Part shown: one piece after another, positions 8,602 through 17,927 of the stretch | Layout: each line of letters begins with the position of its first letter | How positions within the stretch are numbered: position 1 is the stretch's first letter | UHGV virus genome: UHGV-0208172 | Direction: 5' to 3' (one strand) | DNA: 45,009 nucleotides | Origin: a virus | Program-made: the position numbers and the translations under genes | Notes under the pieces: generated by a model | Databases searched by the model: none | Told to the model about the DNA's origin: nothing | Seen by the model: the letters and a program-made list of their open reading frames with translations, nothing else

Positions 8602-8815
8602 AATACGCACCCCTCCCGTTTCGTATGCTCAATCCCGCAGCGCGGACAGATTCGGCAGTCTTCTTCATAGAACCAGTAAATTTTCGTTCCAGCACCCACA
8701 GATAAATTGCGATGAACATACCCAATACGGCGACCATCATGCCGTATTGACCCTCGTGACAGTAGACACCGGCGGCAAATCCCGCCAGTATCGCGATAAT
8801 CAGTTTACTTAGCAT
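8507..8815 (-). CDS. hypothetical protein with hydrophobic N-terminus (frame conflict with 8449..8601)
   Basis: 102-aa ORF; N-terminal half membrane-like, C-terminal half low plausibility. Confidence 0.3.
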   Translation of the reverse strand: MLSKLIIAILAGFAAGVYCHEGQYGMMVAVLGMFIAIYLWVLERKFTGSMKKTAESVRAAGLSIRNGRGAYYDNVCILDDSNHARTVTWRRNSCDVLLRPVL

Positions 8816-11075
8816 AACGGTACACCTCTTCCCCGGCCCATGTTAGTGGGAATCCTTCGGCCCATTCAGGTAATGAGCATAGCAGATCACCCATCTCTTT
8901 AACCGTGTACTCCGGTGTGTCTGGTGTTTCGGCGACACATTCGTCATGTACGTGAAGTACAATTGGGTATCCCGCTGCCTCGACCGTCAGGAGTCCGTTA
9001 ACCAGTAAATCACGGCACAACGCTTGAATAATGTTTTCACACAATTTCCCGCCGTGGGTGTACAAAGTTGTCCACTGGCGGGTAGTCTGATTTTCGCCCT
9101 GGTACTTAATGCGAACGTTAGTTGTTACGCGCCCATCCTCGTCAGTTTCTTTAGTCACGCTTAAGCCTATGCCAGGGTAGGACATGATGCGCCCGGACGG
9201 CAACTCCACGCATAGCCACCAACCTGGCACAAAGTTACCCTGTCTGTCTTTCTCTTTAGTACGCCAGATGCGAATGGCCCTATCACCGTTGAGGCGGACT
9301 CTGGCCCCCGCCCAAAACTCTCGCCCCGGATTTCTGATTGCTGCAATTACCGAATCCTTAAGGTCGTTCCAGAATTTTACTGTTTCCGGATGAGCCTCCC
9401 GCCACATGCGCTTGATAGCATCGCAAGTGCGCCAGACTTCTTTAGGCAGCACATAAGAGGCCCGTTCATCTTTTTTACCGGGTTTCGGTGGTCGCTTAGC
9501 CTCCTGGATCCGCGCCCATTCATAACCTCGGGCAGTGGCGGCCCATATATGGTCAGGGAATGTTCCCCGCATTGTCTCCGTCATTTTAAAGAGGTCCAGA
9601 CCGTAAGTTTTAGCCATAGTCATGAAGGCCCCTACGCCCCCCTCGTAGCCAAGGCCGAGTTCGCAACATTTCCCGACCTGTCGCAGGTCCTTACGGGTGG
9701 CTTTCAGTTCTACAGGGTCCATACCAAACATCTTGCCCGCAGTGGCGCAGTAAATATCAATCCCCGCGCGGAACGTCTCAAGGGCAGACGTCTCCCCCGC
9801 CGTCCAGGCTAACCCACGCCCTTCCACGTTTGAGTAGTCGGCAACGAGCAACTTATTGCTTTTTTTCGGGATGATGCAACTGCGGACGGTTGAGGCCGTT
9901 AGTTTAGATACATCAAAACGGCGATGCGCTCGGCCCTTTAAAAGCAAATTGATGCCAAACGATAGCTGGTGCAGCCTGCGGTGCCACTCTTCGTCGGTCT
10001 CCCACTCAAAACGGACAAGCCCACCTTCGTTTTTAGGGTCGTCATGGTAGTACCCGCGCGACAGGTTCTGTGGTTGGAACGCTTTACCCGCAAATCGTAA
10101 AGTGCGCTTTGCCCCGCCGTACTGGATGCACCCACGTCGTCGTCCATCTTTGGACAGTCCTAGCAGGAGCGGTTTATATTTTGTCGACGCCGTGGAGGCT
10201 GCGCCGAGGCGCATCTCAATGATTGTACGCGCATCGTCGGGCAAGTCGTCGTCCTCTAATAAACCTTCGAGCGTTGCTTTCTGCGCATTATAAATATTGT
10301 AGGCCGGTGCCAGTTCCCGAAGGATTGGCAGGAAATCTTTGCCCGTTAGCTTCCCGCCGAACTTCGCGCGGGCCTCGTTTTTTAGCTCTTGCTTGTGGCG
10401 TTCAACCGCCGCTACCGCCGCCTCAGCAAGAGCCGTGTCAACAAAGAAGCCTCGGTCGTTGATTAGCTGGTCCAGCTCCAGTACACGGTCTTCGAATTCT
10501 GAGTTACCCCAACGCGGCAGCTTATGGAACACTTCACGCATCGCAGTGATGTCGCTCACGGCGTACTTGATAAACAAAGCCCACTCGTCCGGGTGCGTCT
10601 CAGCGGTGTAACGGCGGATTTTGTAGTTCTTCGGCGTGGGCTTAGAGAAACGCTTAATCAGCGCCTTGCCGCGTTTATCTTTCGCGTTGTCCGCGGACAC
10701 GCCCAGCACTTCGCACAACGCATCGAGCGACCCCGGCAGCGCGTGACGGAACGCCCAAATCATCGTATCAATGGTGTTACTTACCGGAATATCGAAACCC
10801 CAGCAGTGCTTCATGATGAGCCTGTCGAACATTGAACCATTGTGCCATACCATCTTGATGCGGCTGTTGGGCTTAACAAGGCGGCGTAGCGCGCGGTGCA
10901 AATCGCCTGGCATGTCGCTGCCGTCGGTGCAATCCCATACCTGCACAGGCTCGTCGTCAAAAGCATAGGTACAGATGAGCACTTCGGTTGACGGGTGTTC
11001 GGCGTAAGCGTAGGAACCGACTTTCTTCAAATCGGCTTCGGAGAATGTTTCAAAGTCCAGGTATAAGTAGCTCAT
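8805..11075 (-). CDS. family A DNA polymerase with 3'-5' exonuclease domain
   Basis: Exo I LDFETFS; pol motif A DYSNVEGR, motif B RQVGKCCELGLGYEGG, motif C HVHDE; likely start ATG at 11075 with RBS AAGGAAAAAG (track start 11129 is TTG). Confidence 0.9.
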   Translation of the reverse strand: MSYLYLDFETFSEADLKKVGSYAYAEHPSTEVLICTYAFDDEPVQVWDCTDGSDMPGDLHRALRRLVKPNSRIKMVWHNGSMFDRLIMKHCWGFDIPVSNTIDTMIWAFRHALPGSLDALCEVLGVSADNAKDKRGKALIKRFSKPTPKNYKIRRYTAETHPDEWALFIKYAVSDITAMREVFHKLPRWGNSEFEDRVLELDQLINDRGFFVDTALAEAAVAAVERHKQELKNEARAKFGGKLTGKDFLPILRELAPAYNIYNAQKATLEGLLEDDDLPDDARTIIEMRLGAASTASTKYKPLLLGLSKDGRRRGCIQYGGAKRTLRFAGKAFQPQNLSRGYYHDDPKNEGGLVRFEWETDEEWHRRLHQLSFGINLLLKGRAHRRFDVSKLTASTVRSCIIPKKSNKLLVADYSNVEGRGLAWTAGETSALETFRAGIDIYCATAGKMFGMDPVELKATRKDLRQVGKCCELGLGYEGGVGAFMTMAKTYGLDLFKMTETMRGTFPDHIWAATARGYEWARIQEAKRPPKPGKKDERASYVLPKEVWRTCDAIKRMWREAHPETVKFWNDLKDSVIAAIRNPGREFWAGARVRLNGDRAIRIWRTKEKDRQGNFVPGWWLCVELPSGRIMSYPGIGLSVTKETDEDGRVTTNVRIKYQGENQTTRQWTTLYTHGGKLCENIIQALCRDLLVNGLLTVEAAGYPIVLHVHDECVAETPDTPEYTVKEMGDLLCSLPEWAEGFPLTWAGEEVYRYAK

Positions 11076-11244
11076 TTCTTTTTCCTTAAATCCAGTGCCT
11101 TCGTTTCGCTTAATCTTATTTTCATACAATCACGGCAAATCCACACATGCCGGTGTCCGGCCCGGTAATCATCCGCGTACCACGGAAGCGGTTTGATATA
11201 GTGGTAAACGTGCTTACAGAAAAACATTATTTTCGACCCTTAGT

Positions 11245-11267
11245 AAAAAGGCCCAATGAAGGGCCTT
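11245..11267 (-). terminator. rho-independent terminator downstream of SSB-like gene
   Basis: AAGGCCC-TTCATT-GGGCCTT hairpin followed by TTTTT on - strand. Confidence 0.5.
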
Positions 11268-11286
11268 AGTTAAATTGATTCAGATA

Positions 11287-11913
11287 TTAGCGACGACGGC
11301 GTTCGCGGCGCGGTGCTTCATCTTCTTCGTCGTCTTCCAGGTCATTGACGCTTGCAGCGACTTTAGAACCACCGAACGCTTTACCTTCGCCGACGTATTT
11401 AATTGCCAGCAGGTTAACACCGAGAACTTTGTATTTCTGGCTGAACCAGATTTCTACGCTTACGTTGGCGACGCAACCGCTGTAAACCTGTTCGCCTTCA
11501 ATCTGTTCGCCGTCTACGTTGAAGTCCTGCTCTACCTGAGTCTCGCCTTTTTTAGAGGTTACAATCAGTGGCTGCTTCTGGGCCTTCGCCTTGAAGTAGA
11601 AGCCTTCCGGGAAGTCTTCAAACGGATTGTCGCGCTCGGCAATGTCTTTAATTGCGCATTTATCCATGTGCTTACCTTCTCCGTAGTTGGACTTCATCCA
11701 CTTCTCGGCGGCGGCTGCACCCAACGCCTCTTCAACTACAGCGTAAACGGTGTCGTAGAGCGCGTCGATTTGTGCGTGGTCAGACGGCAGGATGATAGTC
11801 GCGCTGTACTGGCCTTTAGTGATTGAGCCATCATCGTTTTCACGGTCTTTTTCGCGTTCGAATACGTTAACCCAGGCAGTGTTTACTTTACGCAGATTCA
11901 GTTTAATACCCAT
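11287..11913 (-). CDS. phage ssDNA-binding protein-like (DUF2815-type)
   Basis: 208 aa; acidic C-terminal stretch DLEDDEEDE followed by RRERRRR; position next to polymerase and Cas4-like nuclease. Confidence 0.6.
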   Translation of the reverse strand: MGIKLNLRKVNTAWVNVFEREKDRENDDGSITKGQYSATIILPSDHAQIDALYDTVYAVVEEALGAAAAEKWMKSNYGEGKHMDKCAIKDIAERDNPFEDFPEGFYFKAKAQKQPLIVTSKKGETQVEQDFNVDGEQIEGEQVYSGCVANVSVEIWFSQKYKVLGVNLLAIKYVGEGKAFGGSKVAASVNDLEDDEEDEAPRRERRRR

Positions 11914-11966
11914 CTTAATTTCTCGCTTTTAAGTTTACTCCGGGAACTGCCCGGCCAGTGATTAGA

Positions 11967-11995
11967 ACTATAATAGCTAACTATTCAGGTGTCAA
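11967..11995 (-). promoter_or_regulatory. sigma70-like promoter (class B: TTGACA-N17-TATAGT) upstream of SSB-like gene
   Basis: Read on - strand: TTGACA CCTGAATAGTTAGCTAT TATAGT. Confidence 0.5.
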
Positions 11996-11999
11996 CACT

Positions 12000-13241
12000 T
12001 TATTCCAAATCTTCTTCACTAACCTGATTCCAACCGAAGCTGTTAAAGTGATACCGGAAGAAGAACTGAAAGACTTCATCACACGTAAGCCAGGTGCCCA
12101 GTTCTTCTTCCGGTATCACTTTAACAGCTTCGGTTGGCGTCATGAGCACTTCTTTAGTCAGCTTGTCGCCGTAGAGTTCTGCTACTTTCTCTGCGTCTTT
12201 CCACGCACGGTTGCCCATCTTACCCTCCACCAGCTTGTACCCAGGAACTTTCTTACCGGAATGCAATGCGGCGGACATCGCTTTCTCAACCTTGTCGATG
12301 TGCTGGCGCAACAGCGGCAACTTCTCATACTCAACTACGAGTTGCTCCGGCGTCAGTTCCAGCACAAAGTCGTCTTCAAGTTCTTCCGCCAGTACCGCGT
12401 TAACGGTTTTTGTACGCGCGGCGCATTGTTCAGAGAACCGGCACCACTGACAACCATCGACCGACGGCCTGAAGTCCGATGCTTTCAGGTTCTTTTTACC
12501 GCGGAAATAAGCATCAAGCGCTAACAGTGCGCGTTTCTGCGCGAACTTAGCGAACAGTTCCAGACCTTCAACCGAGATGTCCCACTCCGACGCACCGCCT
12601 GCGTACGGCTGAAAGATGACCAGGCGAACAACTGTGATGTTATAACGTCTCTTGAGTCGGCGATAAACACCGAGAGCGTAAAGCATAAGCTGCTTGTTTT
12701 CTTTCGCTTCGACACGATGTCGTCCAGTTTTAAGGTCGCCGATGATTAGCATGTGTTCGTCGGTGTTAGCCAGTTCCTGCACGGCAACAAGGTCGGCCGT
12801 TCCGAACGTCTCAACGCCTTCATACCCCGGATGCAACACCTCAGTAAGATTTACCCGCATTTCCAGCTTGGCGTAAGTCGCTACGTCGATAATTGGTTTG
12901 CAGTAGTCGGTGTACTTGCGCACCTGCTCAATCATGTCCGCCGTAATCAGTACCGCGCCTTTCATCGGGCTAATTAGCGCCTTAATCTGGCCTTTACCCT
13001 CGTCCAGCACGTAAGCACCTACCTCGCGCTCTAATGGCAACGCAGTGCCTTTTATATACTGGTTTAGATGGACCTCAGCTATAGTGTGACATGCGGTTCC
13101 TGTAACGGCGGCTTTACCGGACGTGTTAGGAATATCTTTTTCACAGGCCAGGGATGCAGCGCAACTTAGCCACTTTTTAGCGCCAGACGGTGACAGTAAA
13201 GCGTGCACATCGTTATTGCCGCCGCGTTCCTTTAAAATCAT
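12000..13241 (-). CDS. Cas4/RecB-like PD-(D/E)XK nuclease with Fe-S cysteine cluster (DUF2800-type)
   Basis: 413 aa; N-terminal SPSGAKKWLSC, nuclease motifs DLVAV / IGDLKTG / QLMLYAL, C-terminal CQWCRFSEQC (C-x2-C-x5-C). Confidence 0.7.
   Translation of the reverse strand: MILKERGGNNDVHALLSPSGAKKWLSCAASLACEKDIPNTSGKAAVTGTACHTIAEVHLNQYIKGTALPLEREVGAYVLDEGKGQIKALISPMKGAVLITADMIEQVRKYTDYCKPIIDVATYAKLEMRVNLTEVLHPGYEGVETFGTADLVAVQELANTDEHMLIIGDLKTGRHRVEAKENKQLMLYALGVYRRLKRRYNITVVRLVIFQPYAGGASEWDISVEGLELFAKFAQKRALLALDAYFRGKKNLKASDFRPSVDGCQWCRFSEQCAARTKTVNAVLAEELEDDFVLELTPEQLVVEYEKLPLLRQHIDKVEKAMSAALHSGKKVPGYKLVEGKMGNRAWKDAEKVAELYGDKLTKEVLMTPTEAVKVIPEEELGTWLTCDEVFQFFFRYHFNSFGWNQVSEEDLE
12030..12137. 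repeat. perfect 39-bp inverted repeat (arms 12030-12068 and 12099-12137, 30-nt spacer) inside the nuclease coding sequence
   Basis: Arm 1 CCAACCGAAGCTGTTAAAGTGATACCGGAAGAAGAACTG is the exact reverse complement of arm 2. Confidence 0.85.
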
Positions 13242-13600
13242 CGTAAACTCTCCAAATACAAGTTTAATGCCTGTAGCTGTTCTTCTGTGGGAATGAAAGA
13301 ACCATCGCGATGTAAGTCGCTTAACTGTTGCAACATTCCTGCGAACTGACGTCTTGCGTCAACAGCGACCATGTGATGCTTTTCACTTTTATATATTAAT
13401 GTTTTCGGGTAATCCTCAAGTCTACCAGAAGATTTATTCACGCGGAGTGCTCGAGCTTCATGCACAATGTGGATGTACTTTTTGCCGTTTTGTAACACAG
13501 TAGCTACGCCGCTGTTCTTTCTGCGGTCACCGACGGTATAGACTTTGTCGCCACTACGCAGGTTAAGCCACCATTTATCGGTCATACCCTGTTCTCCCAC
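13238..13600 (-). CDS. hypothetical protein (120 aa)
   Basis: ORF in leftward replication operon, overlaps neighbours. Confidence 0.5.
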   Translation of the reverse strand: MGEQGMTDKWWLNLRSGDKVYTVGDRRKNSGVATVLQNGKKYIHIVHEARALRVNKSSGRLEDYPKTLIYKSEKHHMVAVDARRQFAGMLQQLSDLHRDGSFIPTEEQLQALNLYLESLR

Positions 13601-13854
13601 TGGTCAATTAAATGTCGTGTCTGGCGATGGCAATGCATGGCCCACCCATACATCGACTCGAAGACATAAAAGTCAGGTTTGGCGAATGTCGTGCGCTTAA
13701 TCTGAGACACATGACGGCCTATATCTTTAGGTCGTGGTACTTTTCCTAAGTACGCCATCTCTTCCATATAGTGCGCACCGGACGGCGCACGCAATAGCCA
13801 CAACGCCTCTGTGTTATCCCGCCTGTCAACGGCGCGGTATAGTTGATAAATCAT
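13582..13854 (-). CDS. hypothetical protein (90 aa)
   Basis: ORF in leftward operon. Confidence 0.5.
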   Translation of the reverse strand: MIYQLYRAVDRRDNTEALWLLRAPSGAHYMEEMAYLGKVPRPKDIGRHVSQIKRTTFAKPDFYVFESMYGWAMHCHRQTRHLIDQWENRV

Positions 13855-13897
13855 ATTTCCGACCCTCAGTTAAAGCGGCCCGAAGGCCGCGGGATAG

Positions 13898-14416
13898 TTA
13901 TTCTTCTTCAAAATACTTGTTCTTGATTTCTGTGAGGCGTTCCAGGTACTCAGCCAGGTCTTCGTCTTTAATCGCGGCAATCTTCATCTTCTTACCGGTG
14001 AACTCTTCCAGCAGTTCATCAGAATCATCGCACGCGGCATCGCTCGGGCCTTCGTTAATCGCATCGTCGATAGCCTGAATCTGATTGCGAAGAGACTCGT
14101 AATCAATCATCTCATCTACCTGCTCTGGTGTTACAGTTTCCTCTACTTTAGCTTTACGCGGCTTACGTTTCGGCTTCTCTTCTTCTGCCGGTTTAGTGTC
14201 TACGATGTCTTCGCCTTCGACCGGGATTTCTTTCACCTTATCTACTTCCTCAAGTGCTTTAGCCAGTTCTTTTTTAACTGTTTCTACCCCCGTGACCGCT
14301 ACGTCAACGGTTAATTCACCTACTGATTTGCTGTTTTGCGGTTTCGCGCTGTTAGCGGCAATCAGTTCATGGGCGACTACAAAACGTTCCAGTAATTTTA
14401 AAAATTGGTCTAACAT
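13898..14416 (-). CDS. highly acidic hypothetical protein (172 aa) with a basic KPKRKPRKAK patch
   Basis: ORF translationally coupled to upstream gene (ATGA); Glu/Asp-rich. Confidence 0.55.
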   Translation of the reverse strand: MLDQFLKLLERFVVAHELIAANSAKPQNSKSVGELTVDVAVTGVETVKKELAKALEEVDKVKEIPVEGEDIVDTKPAEEEKPKRKPRKAKVEETVTPEQVDEMIDYESLRNQIQAIDDAINEGPSDAACDDSDELLEEFTGKKMKIAAIKDEDLAEYLERLTEIKNKYFEEE

Positions 14417-14673
14417 TATTTGTTCTCCTGTTTATTTAACTCATTTTTATAGTCTTCGTAGTAAACTACTTCACTTTCAAGCGGTCTGGATGGCTCGCGC
14501 ACCAGACCGGATGCTATACCGCCGTATATCTCGGCACAATCGTACGGCCAGTTTCCGGTAGAGTCGTAGAAGTCAATCGTCGCTTCATCTACAAACCTAA
14601 CACATTCCGTAGCCTCTGCAGGCCAGCCCCCATACTTAGGTAGTTCTTTAAGAAGCAAGTCAATTAACTGCAT
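14416..14673 (-). CDS. hypothetical protein (85 aa)
   Basis: First gene after class B promoter at 14705; RBS GAGAGGAG. Confidence 0.5.
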   Translation of the reverse strand: MQLIDLLLKELPKYGGWPAEATECVRFVDEATIDFYDSTGNWPYDCAEIYGGIASGLVREPSRPLESEVVYYEDYKNELNKQENK

Positions 14674-14704
14674 CTGTTTCTCTCCTCTCGTTTGGTATGG
14701 GCTA

Positions 14705-14733
14705 ACTATAATAGCTAACTATTCACGTGTCAA
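14705..14733 (-). promoter_or_regulatory. sigma70-like promoter (class B: TTGACA-N17-TATAGT) with GTGAATAGT operator-like core
   Basis: Read on - strand: TTGACA CGTGAATAGTTAGCTAT TATAGT; 30 nt upstream of ATG at 14673. Confidence 0.55.
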
Positions 14734-14737
14734 CGGG

Positions 14738-14766
14738 CTTTTATAAAATAATTAATATGGTACTAT
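14738..14766 (+). promoter_or_regulatory. putative weak rightward promoter for the Cro-like gene (-10 TACTAT, AT-rich -35 region), divergent from promoter at 14705
   Basis: TACTATTCAC -10 region identical to class A promoters; poor -35 (CTTTTA). Confidence 0.35.
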
Positions 14767-14797
14767 TCACATATCAACTGACTAAGGAGTAATTGAC

Positions 14798-15013
14798 ATG
14801 CAACCATCTGAACTAGGCATTCGCGTAGAACAACGCCGTAAAGAACTCGGCATCTCCCAGCGCCGTCTGGCTGTCCTGGCCGGCGTTTCCCAGGGCGCGA
14901 TTAACCAGCTTGCACTCGGTGTAACTCAGGACGTCCGCCCGGCAACGCTGTTTAAACTGGCGGAAGTGCTGGAAGTAGACGCCAAGTGGCTGGCGTTAGG
15001 TGAAGGGGCTTAA
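14798..15013 (+). CDS. XRE-family helix-turn-helix transcriptional regulator (Cro/CI-like)
   Basis: 71 aa; HTH QRRLAVLAGVSQGAINQLALG; RBS AAGGAG; only + strand gene within the leftward module. Confidence 0.8.
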   Translation: MQPSELGIRVEQRRKELGISQRRLAVLAGVSQGAINQLALGVTQDVRPATLFKLAEVLEVDAKWLALGEGA

Positions 15014-15029
15014 GCCCCTTTCTTTTTAC

Positions 15030-17297
15030 CTATTCCAAATCCTCCTCTGTCACTGTCAGCATTTCATTCGGTTCGTATATTGTCTTCGGAATCTTGTTAT
15101 CCGTTATCCTGGTGTTAAGCCGGTAGCGGCCAGGTATTATCTGATTGTTTTCGTCGGTTCCTGGCACAAGATACCCCGCCTCAACCATTTTCTTGATCTT
15201 CCCGCGTTCTATAGCTTCTTTGGAGTTAAACGCCTTCGCGTTGGGGTCGGACTGTGCGAGCTTATTAGCTGCGGCTACCGTGATACCTTCGTTGCCGTTG
15301 TAGGTTCCTTCCGCCAGTTCAAACGCCGCCAGTATCGTGGCCTCCGAACTGTTGACGGCGTTCTCTACGGTTTTACGTACGTTTTCTTTACCTTCTTTCG
15401 ACAGCCCCTCTTCCCGCTCTTTCTCCTCGTCGGTCTTGAACGGCTCGAAGCCCCACGGCATCAGCACAAGCGCTTTGTGCGGCTCTGGCAGGTCCAGGTT
15501 TACGATTGTGCCGTATTCCTCTGTGCTACCGAGGAACTCAACCGCGCGGTATTCTTTCGGCGGCGGGGCTTCGCGGAACTGTACCGACTCCAGCACCATG
15601 CCAACCGTCTTCTGTTGGGGTCCGTGTTTGAATTTCGAGTGGTATACATTTATCTGACGGTCTGTCGCGCGTTCGATTGTCAGTTCCACGTCGACACCCG
15701 CGTACAGCGCCCCACTGCCACGGGCTTTCTTCCCGCCCTTAGGCGTATGGTGGACGACGCCCACCGCGGCTTTAGTCGCATCACGTACTTCTTTCAGGAT
15801 GGCGATAACTTTACCCATGCCGATTGCCGTTGATGAGCTGTTCTCGTCGAACTTATCAATCGTCAGGGCCAGCGTCTGGTTGAGGGTGTCGAACGCAACC
15901 ATGCCAATAGGCTCGTCGCCAGCGGTTTCGCGCATTAGCTTAATCAGGCTTTTCAGTTTTCCGACTTCACCCATGTCGATGACATGTACATAATCTTTAC
16001 CTTCCGCGCCATATTTAGCCGCGAGCGCATCAATACGTGTACGTGTGGCGGCGCCGCCCTCGCCGTCGATATAGAAATGGTGGCAACGCTGGGTATCCGC
16101 CCCCGCAAACCGGTATCCGGCGGCGCTGAGGTACATCATCCCCATCGTATAGAATGATTTGTACGTGCCAGATTCCCCGACAATATCCCAGATACAATCC
16201 GACGGCATGTACCCCTCAACGACGAAATCAGCCTTTACCGGTTCTGGTAACTCGTCCCCCTCTGAGTCCTCATCGTCTTCCAGGTCGTCGAGGCTGCATG
16301 AAACAGATTCACGCGCACCCCATCCTATAGCCTCAGCCACTTCACTGAACGGCAGCCCGGTCGCATCGCACGCATACTTCCACACCTCTTTCGGCGACAT
16401 ACCTTCGGTTGCCGTAATGTCGGTGTCGTGAATCATGGTTACGTTCGGCGCTTCATATCCCTCGCGTGGGAAGCACAACAGGAAGTCGTCCGGGCGCGGC
16501 GTCGGGTCGCTGTAGTTTTCTGCGTGTTCATGTGTAGCTGGCATCTTAAGGCCTCGGGGGGTCATGATGCCACCGTACTCGAACGCCAGTGCCTCGAACG
16601 CGTCTGTAAACGCGGTGCGCAGTTCTTCCGGTATCTGGTAGTCAGATGCGCTGCTCACCTCGTAATCCGGGATGCCTTCCAGTAATTCGTCCGGGTCAAT
16701 CAGGTCGTTACGGCGCGACCAGATAACAGTAGAGCCAACCGGCGGCAGGTACATAGGCTGGGACAGAGTGAAACCGCTGCGGTCAGCGCCCATGCCTTTG
16801 AAGAAGTGCTCCAGCAAGCCATGACGAACACGGATGATGTCTCCGCCTTCAACCGGGCGGCCCAGCGGCATGACGACACGAAAGCGCGGTGACTCATCGG
16901 TATGTGATGCCGTGGTATAGATACACATTGCCTGGCGGCTGCGCTTAACCAGGCGCACCGCTTCCTGATACTCTTCCGGCGTCGCACTGTCGAAGTCAAG
17001 ATACGCCAGCGATGATTTGCTTACAGACGCGTCACAGCGGTAGAAGAAGCCTTTGCGCGCTTGCTTAAAGTCACCGGTTTCCGGGTCTTTTACGGTGCTG
17101 TGCGTTGAGTCACACGCGGCAGTGATATAACCAGGCGCGGTCTTAGGGTTAATCCCGTCGCGAACGGCATCGAGCGGCCGGATTAACTCTTTCAGGTCGT
17201 CCAGTGTTGCCGTGTGTGTGGTTCTGACGTTTATATCCTTTTTCTCCGCCCGCGCGTTGCGACGAGACCACGAGTAGGATAAAATTACATCGGACAT
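15030..17297 (-). CDS. primase-helicase (N-terminal primase-like region, C-terminal RecA/DnaB-like AAA ATPase)
   Basis: 755 aa; Walker A GESGTYKS, Walker B-like IGMVAFD; ends with EEDLE. Confidence 0.75.
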   Translation of the reverse strand: MSDVILSYSWSRRNARAEKKDINVRTTHTATLDDLKELIRPLDAVRDGINPKTAPGYITAACDSTHSTVKDPETGDFKQARKGFFYRCDASVSKSSLAYLDFDSATPEEYQEAVRLVKRSRQAMCIYTTASHTDESPRFRVVMPLGRPVEGGDIIRVRHGLLEHFFKGMGADRSGFTLSQPMYLPPVGSTVIWSRRNDLIDPDELLEGIPDYEVSSASDYQIPEELRTAFTDAFEALAFEYGGIMTPRGLKMPATHEHAENYSDPTPRPDDFLLCFPREGYEAPNVTMIHDTDITATEGMSPKEVWKYACDATGLPFSEVAEAIGWGARESVSCSLDDLEDDEDSEGDELPEPVKADFVVEGYMPSDCIWDIVGESGTYKSFYTMGMMYLSAAGYRFAGADTQRCHHFYIDGEGGAATRTRIDALAAKYGAEGKDYVHVIDMGEVGKLKSLIKLMRETAGDEPIGMVAFDTLNQTLALTIDKFDENSSSTAIGMGKVIAILKEVRDATKAAVGVVHHTPKGGKKARGSGALYAGVDVELTIERATDRQINVYHSKFKHGPQQKTVGMVLESVQFREAPPPKEYRAVEFLGSTEEYGTIVNLDLPEPHKALVLMPWGFEPFKTDEEKEREEGLSKEGKENVRKTVENAVNSSEATILAAFELAEGTYNGNEGITVAAANKLAQSDPNAKAFNSKEAIERGKIKKMVEAGYLVPGTDENNQIIPGRYRLNTRITDNKIPKTIYEPNEMLTVTEEDLE

Positions 17298-17355
17298 GTT
17301 GTATTTCCTTCAGCAAGTAATTTGGCCTCGGCGTTCACCGCGTCGGGGCTTTCTT

Positions 17356-17589
17356 TTATTCCAGGTCTTCTAAAGTAGCGGCCATTCCGCGAACTTCAGC
17401 AACGGCGCTATATTTCCCGCCAACATTTTTCACGACACCGGATTTAACCAGTACCTTCAACGACCCTTCAATAATGGCGGAACTATAGTACTTAAAATAA
17501 CTACGGCGCAAGTCGATAACGCTGCACGACCCCTTTTTACGCGTCAACGAAACGACTGCCGTAAATACACGCGACTGGAACTCGGTCAT
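17356..17589 (-). CDS. hypothetical protein (77 aa) ending in LEDLE
   Basis: ATGA coupling with upstream HTH gene. Confidence 0.5.
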   Translation of the reverse strand: MTEFQSRVFTAVVSLTRKKGSCSVIDLRRSYFKYYSSAIIEGSLKVLVKSGVVKNVGGKYSAVAEVRGMAATLEDLE

Positions 17590-17840
17590 TTCACGTTCTC
17601 CTTAATCCACGCTTCCACTTTCTCCGGGTCAAACGTACCGGGCTGACGGCGGCCCATAATGCGGATACAACAATCCGGGAACTTCCCACTCTTTAACCAG
17701 TTATTAAGCGTGCGGCGAGTAACCCCGATACGCTCAGCTACTTCATTCTGTGTCATCTTTAATCTCCTTAATTGTTTCACGCGCGAACGCTGTAGCTGTG
17801 CCGTATTTATTGGGGCAGTATCTGCTCTCATTATGCCCAC
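17586..17840 (-). CDS. AlpA/excisionase-like (MerR-superfamily) HTH DNA-binding protein
   Basis: RIGVTRRTLNNWLKSGKFPD ... EAWI pattern typical of AlpA-family regulators; strong RBS AAGGAG before ATG at 17756; true start ambiguous between 17756 and 17840. Confidence 0.65.
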   Translation of the reverse strand: MGIMRADTAPINTAQLQRSRVKQLRRLKMTQNEVAERIGVTRRTLNNWLKSGKFPDCCIRIMGRRQPGTFDPEKVEAWIKENVK

Positions 17841-17895
17841 TAAACCACGCTTCTATTAGCAACTCTTTCAACTGTTCTTCTGTCAAAGTAACCAT
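17743..17895 (-). CDS. small hypothetical protein (about 50 aa), first gene after leftward promoter
   Basis: ATG at 17895 with GAGGG RBS; frame conflict with long form of the HTH gene. Confidence 0.3.
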   Translation of the reverse strand: MVTLTEEQLKELLIEAWFSGHNESRYCPNKYGTATAFARETIKEIKDDTE

Positions 17896-17927
17896 TCTCA
17901 AACCCTCATTATCAGTTAACGAAGCCA

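Follow-up and report, generated by a model that had tools for sequence, protein, structure and literature searches.

Results

Three proteins of one replication module end in the same peptide

We analysed the virus genome UHGV-0208172 (45,009 nucleotides, the whole of which we call the window), and in particular a short acidic peptide that recurs on the proteins of its replication module. The window is a Kagunavirus-like (Guernseyvirinae) Escherichia coli siphophage, whose positions 8800-17900 match Kagunavirus, for example Escherichia phage SZH-1, at ~88-91% identity (megablast). The replication module occupies the minus strand from 8805 to 17840 and reads, in the order of transcription, helix-turn-helix (HTH) protein, 77-residue protein (p77), primase-helicase, divergent HTH gene, four small open reading frames (ORFs), nuclease, SSB (single-stranded DNA-binding protein) and polymerase. 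With the genes for a DUF2800 PD-(D/E)XK nuclease, a PF10991 SSB and a family A polymerase adjacent to one another (13241 to 8805, minus strand; Pfam), this is a duf2800-gp2.5-polA replication/recombination module, a name taken from PMC8093625.

Translation shows that three minus-strand proteins end alike, with SEEDLE in the nuclease, TEEDLE in the primase-helicase and TLEDLE in p77, each directly followed by the stop codon. A sequence-only reading of the window had placed EEDLE at 12003-12017 (nuclease) and 15033-15047 (primase-helicase) and LEDLE at 17359-17373 (p77), and all three positions are right; in context the ends read ...NQVSEEDLE, ...TVTEEDLE and ...ATLEDLE. When every stop-to-stop frame on both strands of the window was scanned, these three were the only ORFs ending in [ED]DLE, and a looser tail pattern added a single match, a 7-residue frame ending in RAVEELD. 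Judged from the amino-acid composition of the 73 putative window genes, 0.0012 genes would be expected to end in EDLE, corresponding to a probability of ~3e-10 for three or more, and a tetrapeptide of any kind common to at least three C-termini arose in 1 of 20,000 shuffles.

The tails are encoded by similar DNA, as had been noted, although the consensus given for it was approximate only, the actual sequences being GAAGAAGATTTGGAATAA, GAGGAGGATTTGGAATAG and TTAGAAGACCTGGAATAA. The three 3' ends are alike only across the 15-18 nucleotides that code for the tail, and their flanks are unrelated. We write the motif as [ST]-[DE]-x-D-L-x or [ST]-[DE]-x-D-L-(E); within the window proteome, the motif pattern hits replication-module proteins only. 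The observation of a shared tail is thus confirmed, and it was understated, the motif being wider than had been noted.

Further copies lie in the helicase linker and in the SSB tail

The primase-helicase consists of a primase-like region (residues 1-325), a disordered linker, an AAA_25/RepA-like helicase domain (350-620), a winged-helix-like domain (623-727) and a disordered tail. Besides the C-terminal copy, the linker holds a second one that the sequence-only reading had missed (Table 1). In an AlphaFold2 model of the protein, with a mean predicted local distance difference test (pLDDT) score of 82, pLDDT falls below 50 at residues 328-348 and 731-755, exactly the two motif segments, so that flexibility is predicted around both copies, which is what a short linear motif would lead one to expect.

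The SSB carries the motif as well. The end previously described for it, ...SVNDLEDDEEDEAPRRERRRR before the stop codon, is correct; the suggestion that this stands in place of the shared tail is not, as DLEDD is the same motif at an internal position, ahead of an unusual basic end. Relatives conserve an SSB end of the RPRRRRR type, and acidic and basic blocks often alternate ahead of it. The SSB tail past the motif is a polyampholyte, with an acidic run and then PRRERRRR in the window (11287-11352), and with two or three alternating acidic and basic blocks in a set of related loci (L045-L093), for example DDEDDEDEKPRKRRKPRDDEDEDDDEDEAPRKRRRR.

The polymerase C-terminus is never tagged, reading ...RYAK in the window and ...FYRKD in the group of Hafnia phage Enc34, which is described below.

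Table 1 Positions of the replication-module genes, the copies of the shared peptide and associated features in the window.
Feature	Coordinates	Strand	Basis or remark
Family A DNA polymerase, 757 residues	8805..11075	minus	Pfam DNA_pol_A; PHROG 17; untagged
Basic SSB end PRRERRRR and stop codon	11287..11313	minus	Translation
gp2.5/Enc34-ORF6-type SSB and annealing protein, 208 residues	11287..11913	minus	Pfam PF10991, E=7e-16; PHROG 112
Tag copy S188-VNDLEDD-195, start of SSB tail	11329..11352	minus	Translation
Nuclease C-terminal tag S-E-E-D-L-E and stop codon	12000..12020	minus	Translation
DUF2800 / PD-(D/E)XK Cas4-like exonuclease, four conserved Cys, 413 residues	12000..13241	minus	Pfam DUF2800, E=2e-63, PDDEXK_1; PHROG 69
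Inverted repeat, 44 nucleotides, 30-nucleotide spacer	12025..12142 (arms 12025-12068, 12099-12142)		95% arm complementarity
Helicase C-terminal tag T-E-E-D-L-E and stop codon	15030..15050	minus	Translation
Primase-helicase, 755 residues	15030..17297	minus	Pfam AAA_25; PHROG 3228 replicative helicase-primase
Internal tag copy S335-LDDLEDDED-344, primase-helicase linker	16266..16295	minus	Second copy
p77 C-terminal tag T-L-E-D-L-E and stop codon	17356..17376	minus	Translation
p77, 77-residue winged-helix protein, short linker, C-terminal tag	17356..17589	minus	PHROG 5169; no Pfam family

Conservation shows selection on the peptide

We compared the tail codons of more than 40 related loci from IMG/VR. 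The codons vary synonymously at nearly every position (Thr as ACA, ACC, ACT or ACG; Ser as AGT, AGC or TCA; Glu as GAA or GAG; Leu as TTG, TTA, CTG or CTT), and each of the three stop codons occurs, yet the peptide remains [ST]-E-[EDG]-D-L-E. Codon variation of this sort shows that selection acts on the peptide rather than on the DNA, and that the tail is held by purifying selection on the protein. Six-frame translation of 42 Guernseyvirinae loci gave 9,334 ORFs, of which 101 have the motif as their end; helicase, nuclease and p77 account for 98 of the 101.

Alignment of homologues, which the sequence-only reading had named as a check, shows that the motif is kept in close and distant homologues alike. 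Among the homologues listed, the helicase ends in EEDLE in 114 of 120, and [ST]EEDLE ends nearly all of the 120 closest nucleases. The searches with the nuclease and with p77 returned only matches at least 91% and at least 88% identical, respectively; the tail is kept in both sets, which offer no further depth. Residues C27, C264, C267 and C273 of the nuclease are invariant (alignment A8).

Greater depth came from distant helicases, gathered by an exhaustive HMMER search with the window helicase and then aligned (alignment A2). Helicases of 23-46% identity end in [ST]-x-[DE]-D-L-x(-D), for example ...SATDDDLKD, ...ASDEDLNS and ...TASEADLE, and they keep the D-L pair of the linker too. D338 and L339 of the linker copy are invariant in alignment A1, as is the equivalent pair in A2, and the linker consensus across clades, between the primase and helicase domains, is C-[TSQ]-D-x-D-L-x-D-E. 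We fetched the loci around these distant helicases, which belong to Dhillonvirus (HK578, Gluttony and others) and to other enterobacterial siphophages of 40-46 kb; the contigs of the distant helicases P0244 and P0248 end before the nuclease C-terminus. In nearly every locus the nuclease, helicase and SSB carry the motif at all four sites, and Jerseyvirus likewise retains the four sites. The distant nucleases end in [ST]-D-[ED]-D-L plus at most three further residues, and the SSBs of these phages show, in nearly all loci, A-[ST]-D-x-D-L-[DG]-D-D right behind the oligonucleotide/oligosaccharide-binding (OB) fold, with acidic and basic blocks alternating from there to an RPRRRRR end. More generally, A-[ST]-x-x-D-L-[EDG]-D-D follows just after the SSB OB fold in nearly all clades examined; the copy was not found in the SSB of one locus (L066).

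Unrelated small proteins carry the same end

The third tagged protein of the window, p77, is modelled by AlphaFold2 with a pLDDT of 91 and an H-H-H-E-E topology. A profile search against PDB sequences gave no meaningful match for it, and its fold was found through the AlphaFold2 model and Foldseek, which matched the LexA N-domain, MotA and the RPA32 C-terminal winged helix with template modelling (TM) scores of 0.62-0.70. The protein is therefore best described as a winged helix followed by a linker of roughly 10 residues and then the tag. Its Jerseyvirus homologues end in T-P-E-D-L-E, and a 91-residue PHROG 5169 homologue, 35% identical and with a linker ~20 residues longer, retains only ...H/R-D-L-E.

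Between the AlpA-like HTH gene and the helicase lies a swap site (17298-17600 in the window; compared across L001-L042), occupied by p77, by its 91-residue homologue or by unrelated proteins of 96, 149 or 70 residues, with the tag in the p77 family only.

Other small proteins end in a similar way. A 62-residue protein encoded between the SSB and polymerase genes (L060 group) ends in ...TATDEDLE, and in a variant of it (L063) the C-terminal half differs and the tail is the same. A DUF3268 zinc-finger protein ends in ...ADADLA, and a 60-residue protein of a further locus (L012; 70-codon open frame) in ...KKEDLE. By sequence, the motif is one that recurs on non-homologous proteins.

Tails change in concert in the Enc34 group

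A sister group around Hafnia phage Enc34 shows shared tails with endings of its own. In Enc34 itself (L120, 568-6420), the primase ends in ...DDEDEV, ORF3 in ...GEEEEV, the nuclease in ...DDDEV and the SSB in ...WDEDEV. We sampled 80 loci around Enc34-type nucleases (L202-L281), in which an acidic tail is common within a genome to the primase, the ORF3-like protein, the nuclease, the SSB and often a second helicase. The last tail residue is specific to the lineage: the ending is D[ED]V in Enc34/Chi-like phages, D[ED]L in many others and D[ED]I in L223 (on all five proteins) and L230, with further lineages ending in DEF/EDF (L258), GL (L251, on four proteins) or GLM (L276). After clustering of the loci at 60% nuclease identity into 28 clusters, the last residue was the same in 43 of 62 within-genome primase/nuclease/SSB pairs where 32% was expected, a level that 10,000 permutations never attained. 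Each minority code (V, I, F and GL) agrees among several proteins.

The paper on the Enc34 SSB structure makes no mention of a shared tail, and our literature search, whose coverage is incomplete so that absence is not proof, found no account of shared tails in these phages. The shared tail of the Enc34 group is a new observation and not established knowledge. A comparison of the window proteins p172 and p90 with Enc34 ORF3 and ORF4 found no similarity. The string KDEDLAEY in p172 resembles the tag and was not counted, as it is not conserved in relatives.

Other features of the module

The polymerase start was set at the ATG at 11073-11075 (MSYLYLDFETF...) by homology to SZH-1; the mechanically called ORF began at a TTG at 11129. 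At ~10230-10260 the polymerase contains a conserved internal string that resembles the tag, LLEDDDLPDDAR, with LLADDDLPDDAR in relatives and LLEDPDFPDEGK in Dhillonvirus. We did not count LLEDDDLPDDAR as a tag copy: it is conserved, but it reads DPDFPDE in Dhillonvirus. In two loci (L016 and L026) the polymerase reading frame runs to 1032 residues as against ~757. A large in-frame insertion is implied, which might be an intein or an element of the homing-endonuclease type.

An inverted repeat lies within the nuclease gene at its 3' end, directly upstream of the tag (Table 1). Folded as single-stranded DNA, it reaches -49 kcal/mol (z = -12.6). Relative to SZH-1, 69 nucleotides (23 codons) encoding KDFITRKPGAPCV.TADDKRPEW are swapped for the reverse complement of the adjacent upstream 69 nucleotides; the replacement yields GTWLTCDEVFQFFFRYHFNSFGW and preserves the reading frame and the NQVSEEDLE end. 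Among the 120 homologues listed, the palindrome occurs only in a window-identical sequence, an nr 'MAG TPA' record, and it may have originated by a template-switch mutation or as an assembly chimera.

Between the stop codon of the helicase (15030) and the convergent HTH gene (14798-15013, plus strand) lies a G+C-rich hairpin, aaggggcttaagcccctt, followed by a T-run (15005-15035), which looks like a terminator common to both convergent genes.

Discussion

A proposed docking peptide for a phage-encoded receptor

The sequence-only reading had suggested that the common end could be a docking or a degron tag. Docking is probably correct: protein-level selection, predicted disorder, non-homologous carriers, internal sites and the concerted change in the sister group together make strong comparative evidence for a shared docking tag, from which we infer binding itself. 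In the mechanism we propose, [ST]-[DE]-x-D-L-(E) in flexible tails and linkers would attach several replication and recombination proteins to one phage-encoded site. The clients would be the DUF2800 exonuclease, the gp2.5-type SSB and the primase-helicase, the last of these with two copies, joined optionally by small proteins such as p77, and the most likely receptor would be the family A polymerase of the same duf2800-gp2.5-polA module, paralleling T7 gp4 and gp2.5 on gp5.

Several considerations lead to this proposal. If several unrelated proteins bind at one common, co-evolving site, the peptide that they carry should change in concert and by lineage, as is seen in the Enc34 group. Phages of shared hosts (T7, Chi/Enc34-like phages, Kagunavirus, Dhillonvirus) use different codes, with DF in T7, DEV in Enc34/Chi-like phages and DL-E in the window's clade, and this makes it likelier that the receptor is encoded by the phage than that it is a conserved protein of the host. 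The polymerase is favoured because it is the sole large, universal protein of the module that is never tagged, and because of the T7 precedent; we name it as a plausible but tentative receptor. Taken as a whole, the findings seem to us best explained by a docking peptide that is specific to the lineage and recognised by a single receptor encoded by the phage, with the polymerase as the likeliest candidate, and we lean towards this reading.

A broader form of the proposal is more speculative and could well be wrong. One 'address label' might wire the duf2800-gp2.5-polA modules of many tailed phages, such that acquiring the tag would give any protein access to the replisome, be it primase-helicase, exonuclease, SSB, winged-helix protein or zinc-finger protein. 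The receptor, on the polymerase or another core protein, would read an acidic tag with a hydrophobic anchor, and tag and receptor would drift together (DF, DEV, DEL, DEI, DEF, GL, DL-E), insulating the replisomes of phages that share a host.

A number of observations weigh against a docking peptide of this kind. The Leu or the terminal Glu is missing from occasional natural variants (EEDSE, TEEDL), and covariation among the proteins is weak in the window's own clade, amounting to essentially one E-to-D difference at position -3. In the sister group, where covariation is pronounced, the permutation test controls for phylogeny only by the clustering at 60% identity, and Leu dominates the background. 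In the AlphaFold2 models, neither helicase copy docks onto the helicase's own domains, and no pocket was revealed. The anchor in the window is a Leu at position -2 with no aromatic residue, as compared with the terminal Phe of T7 and the last-residue hydrophobic of Enc34, so the binding mode may differ. Lastly, many close relatives have untagged, unrelated genes in place of p77; because its slot varies in this way, p77 would be an optional, dispensable client.

Other explanations of the shared peptide

The main alternative, which we regard as unlikely, places the receptor in the OB-fold groove of the gp2.5-type SSB, or in DNA-binding clefts generally, where acidic tags would mimic single-stranded DNA. 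Tags would then recruit the helicase, the nuclease and p77 to the SSB or displace the SSB from single-stranded DNA, and the SSB's own copy would be an autoinhibitory competitor. Physical contact is expected of an exonuclease and annealing-protein pair, and the SSB itself bears the motif, although a tagged SSB suits the part of a client better than that of a receptor. The crystal structure of Enc34 ORF6 speaks both ways: its proximal acidic tail occupies a neighbouring molecule's groove, yet disorder rather than binding is seen for the last 11 residues, to which the shared DEV end belongs. A groove that accepts any polyanion would also leave unexplained the invariant D-L pair and the lineage-specific V, I, L and F ends.

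Docking onto a host protein, such as a partner of the host SSB C-terminus, the sliding clamp, thioredoxin or a chaperone, is improbable. An acidic stretch followed by an aliphatic residue does resemble the D-D-D-I-P-F end of E. coli SSB, and Enterobacteriaceae are the hosts of all phages in the window's clade. A conserved host pocket, however, would favour one code, and phages of the same host differ in theirs. The tag also lacks the Pro-Phe end, and it does not fit the sliding-clamp consensus QL[SD]LF / QLxLxL, having no Gln, a single hydrophobic residue and an acidic context.

It is very unlikely that the tail is a C-terminal stability signal, whether the degron put forward by the sequence-only reading or an anti-degron, that controls the turnover of early proteins. 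One C-terminus is common to three early proteins, and charged C-termini protect from C-terminal proteolysis in E. coli. Against this, the conserved copies of the helicase linker and of the SSB are both internal, and some nucleases have 1-3 residues after the Leu or lack the final Glu. Known C-degrons of E. coli are non-polar, whereas the terminal residue here is Glu and the tail is not ssrA-like, and neither a degron nor an anti-degron role predicts the concerted V, I, L and F changes.

Least of all do we credit a nucleic-acid feature, be it a repeated DNA or RNA element, gene conversion of 3' ends or an embedded GAGGAG that serves as Shine-Dalgarno sequence of a gene downstream: the idea was prompted by GAGGAGGA in SZH-1, where a downstream ORF begins within the nuclease tail GAGGAGGATTTAGAATGATG, which could be its ribosome-binding site, but DNA repeat, gene conversion and embedded ribosome-binding site are ruled out because codons vary extensively and synonymously with the peptide constant, the flanks are unrelated, the peptide is kept on proteins 23-46% identical, the p77 tail TTAGAAGACCTGGAA has no Shine-Dalgarno sequence (no GGAG), and no window gene starts within 55 nucleotides of any of the three stop codons.

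If the docking label is real, the organisation of these phage replisomes would come down to one peptide-pocket contact, and replisome clients would be predicted among uncharacterised small proteins, namely p77, the 62-residue protein and the DUF3268 zinc-finger protein. The differing codes of same-host phages would provide natural orthogonal peptide-receptor pairs. The T7 paradigm of helicase and SSB contacting the polymerase would extend to exonucleases and accessory factors in Guernseyvirinae, Dhillonvirus and Casjensviridae, phages in wide use in phage therapy collections. An annotation rule would also follow, which is to seek shared C-terminal tails inside the replication module.

Comparison with known systems

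Among the nearest known systems are the Enc34/Chi-like (Casjensviridae) and Nazgul-like phages, which have the duf2800-gp2.5-polA module, shared acidic tails and an untagged polymerase. Enc34/Chi-like phages differ in that the hydrophobic residue is the very last one; internal copies were looked for in them and none was seen.

In T7, the tails of gp4 bind two basic patches on gp5, and removal of the tail lowers processivity (PMC12593628). The ends of T7 gp4 (...NDTDF) and gp2.5 (...EDGDF) are both ...DF, the pattern in its smallest form, and the resemblance lies in an acidic, disordered tail with a hydrophobic anchor on the helicase-primase and the gp2.5-family SSB, combined with a family A polymerase that has no such tail. 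The window helicase has a tail of this type, disordered and strongly acidic (...TVTEEDLE, residues 731-755). The window SSB departs from it, its motif being internal (S188-D195) and the protein ending in PRRERRRR. In contrast to T7, the tag of the window's clade is found on four or more protein families, an exonuclease and small accessory proteins among them; the window helicase has a second, internal copy, and in this clade up to three residues follow the Leu.

The C-terminal tip of bacterial SSB, D-D-D-I-P-F, is likewise a flexible tail, acidic with a hydrophobic end, that organises many genome-maintenance proteins. The window SSB ends in a basic stretch instead, and the tag has no Pro-Phe and sits on client enzymes. 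Compared with the bacterial hub, the arrangement is thus reversed: there the SSB is tagged and many enzymes have pockets, whereas here many proteins are tagged and presumably share one pocket.

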